Below are positions 7,067 to 57,475 of a DNA stretch of 64,000 bases, one piece after another. The notes under the pieces were generated by a model. It worked only from the letters and a program-made list of their open reading frames with translations. It made no database searches and was not told the DNA's origin. Each line of letters starts with the position of its first letter. Position 1 is the stretch's first letter. Both the position numbers and the translations under genes were made by a program. The stretch comes from Octopus vulgaris (Eukaryota), in NCBI GenBank assembly GCA_951406725.2, contig OX597837.1, positions 24,180,001 through 24,244,000 on the forward strand, written 5' to 3'.

Positions 7067-7243
7067 GCCACTACACACATTTTTTTCTCTCTTTGTTTCT
7101 CTCCTTGTCTATTCTGTATCCCTTTCTGTAGAAGAGCGTAGGCTCGAAACGTAAAATACTTTTTTCTATTCCTGAGCGTTATACTAATACATCTGCTTGT
7201 TTTGTACACCACCTGTCTTCGTCTTTTGTTTTTATCGTAAACT

Positions 7244-14570: not shown

Positions 14571-14608
14571 TGTGTGTGTGTGTATGTATGTGTATATATA
14601 TATATATA

Positions 14609-14830
14609 GTTAATCCAAACATGAAAACACAAAGAGAAAACACAACAACGCGAGGATGTGGAACAAATATAGTATTATTGGACGCTCAGGAAGGAAGAGA
14701 AGAAGGAGGGTTTTACGTTTCGAGCGGAGCTCTTCGTCAGAAACATAGGAAAAGGAAAGATCCAGAGAAGGGAAGACGGAGGGAAAAAAATCGCCAACGA
14801 TACACACGCGGTCACATTTTGAATCTGGGA
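14609..14830 (-). mobile_element. Penelope-like pLTR-type element next to (TA)n
   Basis: Contains a canonical minimal hammerhead; shares a CCTGAGCG..TAATAC 3' motif with the A6U family; truncated relative at 40750-40846. Confidence 0.7.
14710..14744 (-). ncRNA. Minimal type I hammerhead ribozyme motif (canonical core)
   Basis: GUUU-CUGACGA-A-GAGC-UCC-GCUC-GAA-ACGU-A/AAAC: stem I GUUU:AAAC, stem II GAGC:GCUC, palindromic ACGU in place of stem III, GUA cleavage triplet. Confidence 0.8.
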
Positions 14831-15059
14831 AGGAAATAGATGGTGGAGGTCCGGGGTGTACGGACGATGAGGTTGGTGGCGGTGGAGGGAGAACAGAAGA
14901 GGAGATGAGGTCGTGGATGGTGGAGGACACTCGTTGTTGGTATGAGGAGGTGGGATCGGAGGGGAGGAGGCGATAGAAGAGGGGATTTTGAAGGTTTTGT
15001 AAGACTTACCTATTCAAACGGACAAGAAGTTAGAAAGATAATAGACCGGACATAACAAT

Positions 15060-15365
15060 TATAGGTAAGGAAAAGCAGCGAAGTTGCTCAATGATCGACC
15101 CACCATGCCCGTTTGATTCCAGTATCGTAAAGAAAGAAAACGGAAAACAAACAAAAAATATAATCCCTTAAAATTTGAAATAGGGAGAATTTGGGGCGTG
15201 AGAAAAGTGAAGGTCGTGCCTATAATAATTGGTGCATTAAGAACAGTCAGCAAAGGTATAGACAAATGGCTGAAAGAGACTGGAACAGAATGCTCGGTAG
15301 AGCTCCTACAGAAAGTTTGTTTCTTAGGGACAGCAAGGATTATCAGGAGGGTTCTAAGCACTAGA
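15060..15365 (+). mobile_element. RLE-type LINE (R4/Dong-like) C-terminal remnant
   Basis: KYNPLKFEIGRIWGVRKVKVVPIIIGAL...LLQKVCFLGTARIIRRVL. Confidence 0.8.
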
Positions 15366-18584: not shown

Positions 18585-18608
18585 TGTATGTATGTATGTA
18601 TGTATGTA

Positions 18609-18641
<33 letters not shown>

Positions 18642-18642
<1 letters not shown>

Positions 18643-18848
18643 ACGGGAAGCTTTATGAAAATAAACAAAAGACGAAGGCAGGTGGAATATAAACAAACAA
18701 TTGTATTAATATGGCGCTCAGGAATATAAATAAAACAAGTCTTTTACGTTTCGAGCCTACGCTCTTCAACAGAAAGATACACAGAAAAGAAACACAGAAA
18801 GAAACAAGGAGAGAAAAAAAATGCGTGCAGAAGCTAGCGAATCAACAT
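18642..18848 (-). mobile_element. A6U-hammerhead Penelope-like element
   Basis: Minus-strand CTTT-CTGTTGA-A-GAGC-GTAG-GCTC-GAA-ACGT-A-AAAG at 18741-18776; (TA)n at its 3' end. Confidence 0.7.
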
Positions 18849-33123: not shown

Positions 33124-33296
33124 GGGAGAGTTTACGAAAAAAACAAAAGACGAAGACAGGTGGTGTACAAAACAAACAGATGTATTAGTATAACGCTCAG
33201 GAATAGAAAAAAGTCTTTTACGTTTCGAGCCTACGCTCTTCTACAGAAAGGTACACAGAATAAACAAGGAGAGAAAAAAATGTATGTAGTGGCTAA
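33121..33296 (-). mobile_element. A6U-hammerhead Penelope-like element
   Basis: Motif at 33215-33250 (CTGTAGA core, GUA triplet); (TA)n flank. Confidence 0.7.
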
Positions 33297-33349
33297 TTTA
33301 TATATATATTATTTTTATTATATATATTATATATTATTTATATAATTCA

Positions 33350-40695: not shown

Positions 40696-40753
<58 letters not shown>

Positions 40754-40843
40754 TAATCCAAACGGGAAAACAGAAAAAACAACAACACGTGGAACAATTA
40801 CAGTATTATTATTATTAGGCGCTCAGGAAAATGGAAGAAGGAG

Positions 40844-40902
<59 letters not shown>

Positions 40903-57249: not shown

Positions 57250-57342
<93 letters not shown>

Positions 57343-57345
<3 letters not shown>

Positions 57346-57475
57346 AGAATTCACAAAAAAAAAACAAAAGACGAAGACAAGTGGCGTAGACAACAAACAG
57401 ATGTATTAGTTTAACGCTCGGGTAGTGAAGAAGACTTTAACGTTTCGAGCCTAGGCTCTTCCACAGAAAGGAACA
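57343..57475 (-). mobile_element. A6U-hammerhead Penelope-like element
   Basis: Motif at 57435-57470: CTTT-CTGTGGA-A-GAGC-CTAG-GCTC-GAA-ACGT-T-AAAG. Confidence 0.7.

Follow-up and report, generated by a model that had tools for sequence, protein, structure and literature searches.

A motif resembling a hammerhead ribozyme in a repeat of Octopus vulgaris, together with a sister copy that begins next to the position at which such a ribozyme would cut, raises the question whether self-cleaved RNA of a transposable element is re-inserted into the genome, the cut becoming the 5' end of the new copy. The window, i.e. the whole stretch of DNA analysed (64,000 nucleotides; contig OX597837.1, positions 24,180,001 to 24,244,000), contains the motif within a piece of a Penelope-like element (PLE), with the following features (position +1 being the first base after the predicted cut):

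14593..14608, no strand: (TA)n run at the downstream end of the element, its usual target, the same flank occurring in most sampled copies
14609..14824, minus strand: PLE pLTR piece, from approximately -110 (putative transcript start) to approximately +105 (putative RT start)
14710..14744, minus strand: minimal type-I hammerhead of sub-family A1, read letter for letter
14826..14993, minus strand: piece of the PLE RT gene, 168 nt, ending in the LPKIHK codons, with 92-95% identity to longer copies

The hammerhead motif and its host element

The minus strand from 14744 to 14710 reads GUUU-CUGACGA-A-GAGC-UCC-GCUC-GAAA-CG-UA/AAAC, which confirms letter for letter the 35-nt hammerhead of the original prediction and its scissile bond, predicted between 14714 and 14713. 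Stem I (GUUU/AAAC) and stem II (GAGC-UCC-GCUC) have 4 bp each, and the core CUGANGA...GAAA...UH is present as CUGACGA, GAAA, and UA at 14740-14714, with the extra A after A9 and the G10.1-C11.1 pair. Loop III is palindromic (ACGU, identical in 7/7 aligned copies) and does not form a stable helix III. Across these seven copies, 96.6% of the stem cells were paired, including one change from G-C to C-G, and covariation was not above that of shuffles (36/500). In silico, the monomer of the motif folds into an off-state hairpin that ends at -1/-2, i.e. at the cut. The motif was the sole match of a loose type-I descriptor within the 64-kb window, the background in 100 block-wise dinucleotide shuffles being 0.04 matches per window for the loose form and 0/100 for the strict form. 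An Rfam scan of the window gave only microsatellite-driven matches of the miRNA type among the 150 of 156 matches listed, hammerhead families being absent from these; similarly, the repeat-finder output was dominated by microsatellites.

The genome searched (2.8 Gb, 227 contigs) contains, at locus L111, a natural open frame of 1009 codons that starts approximately 270 nt after the same motif; the motif precedes the ORF in six more of the 12 long loci, and the first Met of the element ORF lies approximately 420 nt after the cut. The L111 ORF contains the motifs DKG (414), LPKIHK (489), YIDD (656), and YCIKCNLCGMLYVGQT (917), corresponding to an RT plus a GIY-YIG at the C-terminal end, as well as a CX4CxxC linker ahead of the endonuclease (CSRSRCNTC at 877). 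Pfam gave a weak match to RVT_1 (E 0.0013, below the cut-off), and the Atlas neighbours of the protein at 0.97 carry RVT_1, GIY-YIG, and HTH_animal. Judged by these sequence features, the host is an EN+ PLE with a single ORF for RT and GIY-YIG, and its linker points to a Neptune/Nematis-like clade (as described in the accessible part of PMC8557442). Because the element is an EN+ PLE, the motif is, by its sequence, to be identified with the known minimal type-I hammerhead (min-HHR) of PLEs, as far as this is described in the accessible part of PMC4209133.

Among the sampled copies, 5'-truncated copies, partial tandems, and microsatellite targets were all seen, and motif pairs lay approximately 6.2 kb apart. 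In this unit of approximately 6.2 kb, the 3' UTR (approximately 3 kb; L111:5220-7301 and L157:1-1250) consists of degenerate CA-rich repeats with GC-rich islands. A non-LTR retrozyme, i.e. tandem units of 150-1000 nt with a hammerhead each, was rejected, as the sampled copies were scattered solos or portions of elements with an ORF. In L007, L039, and L236, the pLTR piece is immediately adjoined by an inverted partner copy, which is the known inverted arrangement of PLEs. In addition, four copies of family B (L161-L164; G000:C1:119858500-119868060) formed a local tandem array with a spacing of approximately 3 kb and one orientation.

The copy in the window is composite. Its RT piece (14826..14993) is joined to the pLTR start via an ATTCA microhomology and one extra G, a junction that is likely a template jump; this single G, at 14825, is located where a cap-derived base would sit. 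Positions 14994-15360 of the plus strand, back to back with the PLE piece, carry a degenerate ORF end (RPDI...IID.P...KE...PIIIGALR...LLQKVC..GTARI), which we take to resemble the restriction-like endonuclease of R4/Dong-type LINEs; a Pfam search of this LINE-like piece gave no match.

Families of the motif

Four families, A to D, were distinguished. Sub-family A1 has a CUGA core with GUA or GUU, and A2 has mostly CCGA (U4C) with GUU. In family B, CCGA (U4C) occurs together with GUC, stem I contains a U-U mismatch, and the ribozyme ends in GUC/AUAC. GUC is the best cleavage triplet and GUU a poor one. Family C, which provided the control family, has A6 replaced by U in its core (CUGUNGA) and CUUU/AAAG as stem I. 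Counts of exact anchors, being lower bounds, amounted to at least 1463 for A1, 8115 for A2, 565 and 415 for B (two anchors), and 5060 for C. The A6U lineage as a whole gave at least 13,566 exact core-anchor matches, indicating that it spread widely with its altered core. Changes at A6 are reported to give low activity, A6C and not A6U being the change tested in the accessible part of PMC3088659; U4C, according to the same part of this source, lowers activity in vitro, yet is sufficient in vivo for a viroid. Family D (L296, L056, L350, and L242) has an unrelated motif, found in L296, with canonical CUGAUGA, stem I ACAC/GUGU, and a 5-bp stem II; two of its copies share a junction with one further repeat, which in one case lies directly at the front edge of the core. 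The window contains, besides the A1 motif, the following copies of these families:

18602..18820, minus strand: family C copy, core CUGUNGA, stem I CUUU/AAAG, of the control family
57307..57469, minus strand: second family C copy, core CUGUGGA
near 7126 (plus strand), 33175-33330 (minus strand), and 56431 (minus strand): further family C copies
40750..40848, minus strand: copy of sub-family B1, flanked on both sides by (TA)n runs, whose start falls at +1..+4 counted from the cut predicted for it

The sister copy

The B1 copy is the sister copy from which re-insertion of a 3' self-cleavage product had been proposed (then delimited as 40750-40846). It is real and embedded in (TA)n, but is only 74% like the 14.6-kb copy and comes from a different sub-family, the ribozyme of which ends in GUC/AUAC rather than GUA/AAAC. 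Its own sub-family is very young (40/40 scored matches being 100% identical), and the copy matches it from +1 (window position 40848). The start at about 2 nt past the cut, as originally read, was thus incorrect and resulted from a comparison with the wrong sub-family. Positions +1..+3 of the copy read ATA and continue the register of the TA run, so that the join may be at +1, +2, +3, or +4, and this ambiguity makes the single copy uninformative.

Genome-wide, 61 B-type matches had +1 intact and -4/-3 lost, the 40750 copy among them. Fifty were ambiguous over +1..+4, four were joined exactly at +1 out of TA register, and four at -1/-2; three were not truncations (a chance match in L245, a one-base deletion in L265, and one look-alike). 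A G at -1 occurred in 0/61 of these matches with +1 intact and upstream lost.

Distribution of 5' starts

A first DNA search scored only the 40 best full-length matches and was, because of this bias, not used for a histogram of starts. The set for family B consisted of the first 100 of 565 anchor matches, chosen solely by a downstream anchor. Four of these copies started at +26 or later, 17 at -1..+19, three at -2..-69, and 19 at -98..-125, the remaining ones starting elsewhere upstream or beyond the fetched flank. Per nucleotide, -1..+19 exceeded the next 68 nt upstream 17-fold (p ~3e-8), with L219 left out of the pile due to an internal deletion; one internal deletion was likewise left out of the list for family C.

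Copies show two piles of starts, one at approximately -96..-125 and one at +1..+19, the latter breaking off sharply on its upstream side at the predicted bond, and share a downstream end at approximately +100..+105. The upstream pile, at approximately -110, begins abruptly at a TCA motif, which we take to resemble an initiator, and tails off over 10-15 nt; it looks like the transcript start. A G was present in 7 of the first 100 listed copies starting there, as counted with a pattern that left out read-through copies, which gives a weak hint of a cap-derived G.

The majority of copies run through the cut site. Among those listed at the edge, 41 of the first 43 loci of family A start at +1 or later and two at -7..-1, and 24 of the first 27 loci of family B start at +1 or later versus three before. 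Starts at exactly +1 are few among these listed loci (6/27 in B and 2/43 in A); the pile is 15-20 nt broad and peaks at T positions (+7 and +10), not at +1. Uniform truncation is hence refuted by the abrupt rise at the predicted cut in A and B; the peak that had been expected at the scissile bond takes the form of a step, the spike at the bond itself being absent from the broad pile.

For sub-family A1 (48 of 100 listed), 32 copies started at -96..-110, two further, four at +2..+18, and three at -7..-13, so that a clear pile at the cut was absent among these 48 loci of the canonical U4 sub-family, i.e. that of the window motif. Starts after the cut, read by eye, occurred in 2/30 loci of A2 and in 1/30 of C, at approximately +24. 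The 18 loci of family D in all started at -2..+2 (five), +7..+14 (six), -11/-12 (two), and -18 (five). The -18 class is a five-base microhomology, and with its inclusion the excess was not significant (p 0.24); the family D pile at the cut (5/18 loci, counts without a denominator) is suggestive only.

Genome-wide comparison of the families

Genome-wide starts flanked by TA were counted with gap patterns that took each minus-strand locus once, and were divided by anchor counts. For family A, this gave 238/5136 at the cut (-6..+23) versus 60/4458 upstream (-42..-13), a ratio of 3.4x (2.6-4.6). For family B, 33/218 (-16..+14) versus 12/803 (-43..-14) gave 10.1x (5.3-19), the upstream count being small and the ratio approximately 6x with both-strand listings. 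For family C, 80/3295 (-14..+16) versus 155/6723 (-42..-13) gave 1.05x (0.8-1.4). Both contrasts between ratios were significant (A versus C, p 2e-9; B versus A, p 0.003), with cut and upstream windows that differ between the families. Rates per nucleotide at +1..+14 versus far upstream, hand-coded from the first 100 matches of each search, were 0.26 versus 0.04% in A, 0.96 versus 0.05-0.08% in B, and 0.13 versus 0.07% in C. Family C is therefore not a clean zero, its +1..+14 rate being 1.8x the far-upstream rate (p 0.014) and 5.7x that of -13..-1; its +1..+14 stretch is AT-rich.

Ordinary 5' truncation, shaped by (TA)n microhomology and base composition, would make the GC-rich motif merely a trough between starts. 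Indeed, T and TA positions are favoured as starts everywhere, and this explanation fits family C as well as the single sister copy. In families A and B, however, the C/T-rich stretch +1..+14 exceeds -42..-13 per nucleotide 6x and 13-20x, respectively. Moreover, one-base classes past the cut outrank the three-base classes that precede it, as in A the one-base T at +7 accounts for 9/~928 and the three-base TAT at -34 for 8/~2450. A TA-like stretch further downstream in B gave 21 per at least 292 over 30 nt. Microhomology would, from these sequence comparisons, not account for the pile in A and B; ordinary truncation is already contradicted for both families and is, overall, highly improbable.

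Origin of the step at the cut

The pile at the cut has the same form as the upstream pile, and its edge coincides with the scissile bond, so that it is most simply read as ribozyme cleavage giving the RNA a second 5' end, the position of which would be blurred by microhomology joining of the kind described for R2. Starts would pile up at the cut because self-cleaved element RNA is sometimes reverse-transcribed into (TA)n, which is the probable explanation on the basis of the genomic junctions. A first step would be the start of RT inside the RNA at approximately +105, an internal start of the kind that in vitro work demonstrated for the lizard element PAc. RT would then run to whichever RNA 5' end it meets, i.e. 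the transcript start or the ribozyme cut, and 0-19 nt would go missing as the end of the cDNA seeks out a T/A microhomology in the target. Cleavage itself would require a dimer formed through the palindromic ACGU, and probably protein help, as the literature suggests, and RNA that was not cut, or was ligated again, would be the source of the read-through copies. After a cut at the first pLTR, the template remaining for RT is only approximately 100 nt long, which would make such events dead ends. The strongest pile is found in B, despite its U4C and the U-U mismatch in stem I; as the youngest family has the largest pile, erosion after insertion, which predicts more in old families, is disfavoured.

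The main and serious rival, albeit a rather improbable one, is that, in the absence of any cleavage, RT pauses or dissociates where the motif is folded (as off-state hairpin or dimer) or bound by a protein. Since the predicted hairpin ends at -1/-2, an RT stop would give the same edge. The breadth of the pile fits a stall too, as does the rank of the sub-families, which does not follow U4 versus C4, the pile of canonical A1 being no larger than that of A2; for -40..-1, furthermore, family C has the weakest fold (-7.1 to -7.5 versus -7.8 to -8.7 kcal/mol). However, these fold energies are no more than approximately 1.5 kcal/mol apart, and A1 GUA, which has the most stable fold, lacks a clear pile. 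For -40..+20, the folds resemble one another across the families, with ensemble energies of -8.3 to -9.5 kcal/mol, and an excess of starts is absent inside the 3' arm of the hairpin. In addition, 0/38 long B copies stop at -731..-800, with hairpins to -22.5 kcal/mol, versus 17/96 at the ribozyme (p 0.003), these long copies, from which L288 was left out, being preselected for processive RT; 5/38 stop in a GC-rich zone at -833..-906. Internal deletions within or across the ribozyme were seen in L146, L132, L219, L292, and L047, possibly reflecting RT that skipped the hairpin.

A second transcript start, a cut by a protein nuclease, or selection against insertions of whole ribozymes could also place an edge near the bond; taken together, these are very unlikely. 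A second capped start is disfavoured by the 0/61 matches with a G at -1 and the four joins exactly at +1 out of TA register. Similarly, selection against whole ribozymes would shift the step to near -31, but starts are equally depleted over -30..-1 and further upstream.

With re-insertion of self-cleaved RNA as the preferred reading, the original proposal of in vivo processing now draws on the step of starts in the population of copies, the single sister copy no longer serving as evidence. As the pile is broad and most copies run through the site, such processing is still inferred.

Relation to known systems

The motif agrees with the min-HHR of metazoan PLE pLTRs, as described in the accessible part of Cervera and De la Pena 2014 (PMC4209133), in its type-I core, 4-bp stem I, extra base before stem II, G10.1-C11.1, palindromic 15.2-16.2, absent helix III, and occurrence mostly as solo copies of truncated PLEs. 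It differs in its stem II (4 bp here versus 7-8 there) and in that most copies here are U4C or A6U. That source itself states that the min-HHR lacks in vivo evidence, and the part of it considered gives no positions of 5' junctions.

Poseidon of Anolis carolinensis (PAc; Frangieh et al. 2024, PMC11167929, accessible part) similarly has a hammerhead at the pLTR-ORF junction, AT-rich targets, and a fixed end distance after the hammerhead (85-92 nt by its own numbers, approximately 100-105 here). Its internal RT start was shown in vitro, and cleavage was dispensable for insertion in vitro. The PAc ORF starts inside the motif, whereas the first Met here follows well after the cut; unlike PAc, the protein here has the CX4CxxC linker. 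For PAc, that source found no RNA-seq reads ending at the site, whereas genomic starts step up at the site here. Neptune/Nematis EN+ PLEs (Craig et al. 2021, PMC8557442, accessible part) share the C-terminal GIY-YIG, a CX2-5CxxC linker, the (TA)n bias, partial tandems, and a pLTR hammerhead, the function of which is called unclear there. As in R2 with its HDV-like ribozyme (Eickbush et al. 2013, PMC3774820, accessible part), the cut would set the RNA 5' end; when the R2 ribozyme cuts at the end of the element, microhomology makes the 5' junctions variable. Ribozyme and element are, however, different ones, and the R2 cut defines full-length copies, whereas that of the octopus element would define a minority of dead-end copies of approximately 100 nt. 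Junction data were not found in the accessible parts of a review (PMC6765202) and a 2026 preprint (10.64898/2026.07.22.740005). Likewise, in the article texts and abstracts covered, a literature search found no published genomic junction counts at a PLE hammerhead cut. Motif and element class are thus already known, and the new part would be the step of genomic starts at the cut, with family C as a partial negative control.

Implications for Penelope-like elements

The role of the PLE hammerhead is open in the literature, given its poor in vitro cleavage, its dispensability for insertion in one reconstituted system, and the lack of RNA-seq ends. A step of genomic starts at the scissile bond, for which the sister family with its altered core serves as internal control, provides indirect evidence of cutting in germline cells. 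Such a junction step is a DNA-only readout that is applicable to any PLE family, and B, A, and C represent three natural variants for comparing cleavage rank. On balance, we lean, somewhat cautiously, towards regarding the octopus genome as preserving, like a fossil record, quantitative traces of self-cleavage by the PLE min-HHR in vivo, with thousands of cut-set insertions, the rate of which would track the state of the ribozyme (approximately 15% for young GUC, approximately 5% for GUU/GUA, and near background for A6U). U4C would then be tolerated in vivo, and cleavage may act mainly as a brake on the element, giving dead-end insertions of approximately 100 nt.
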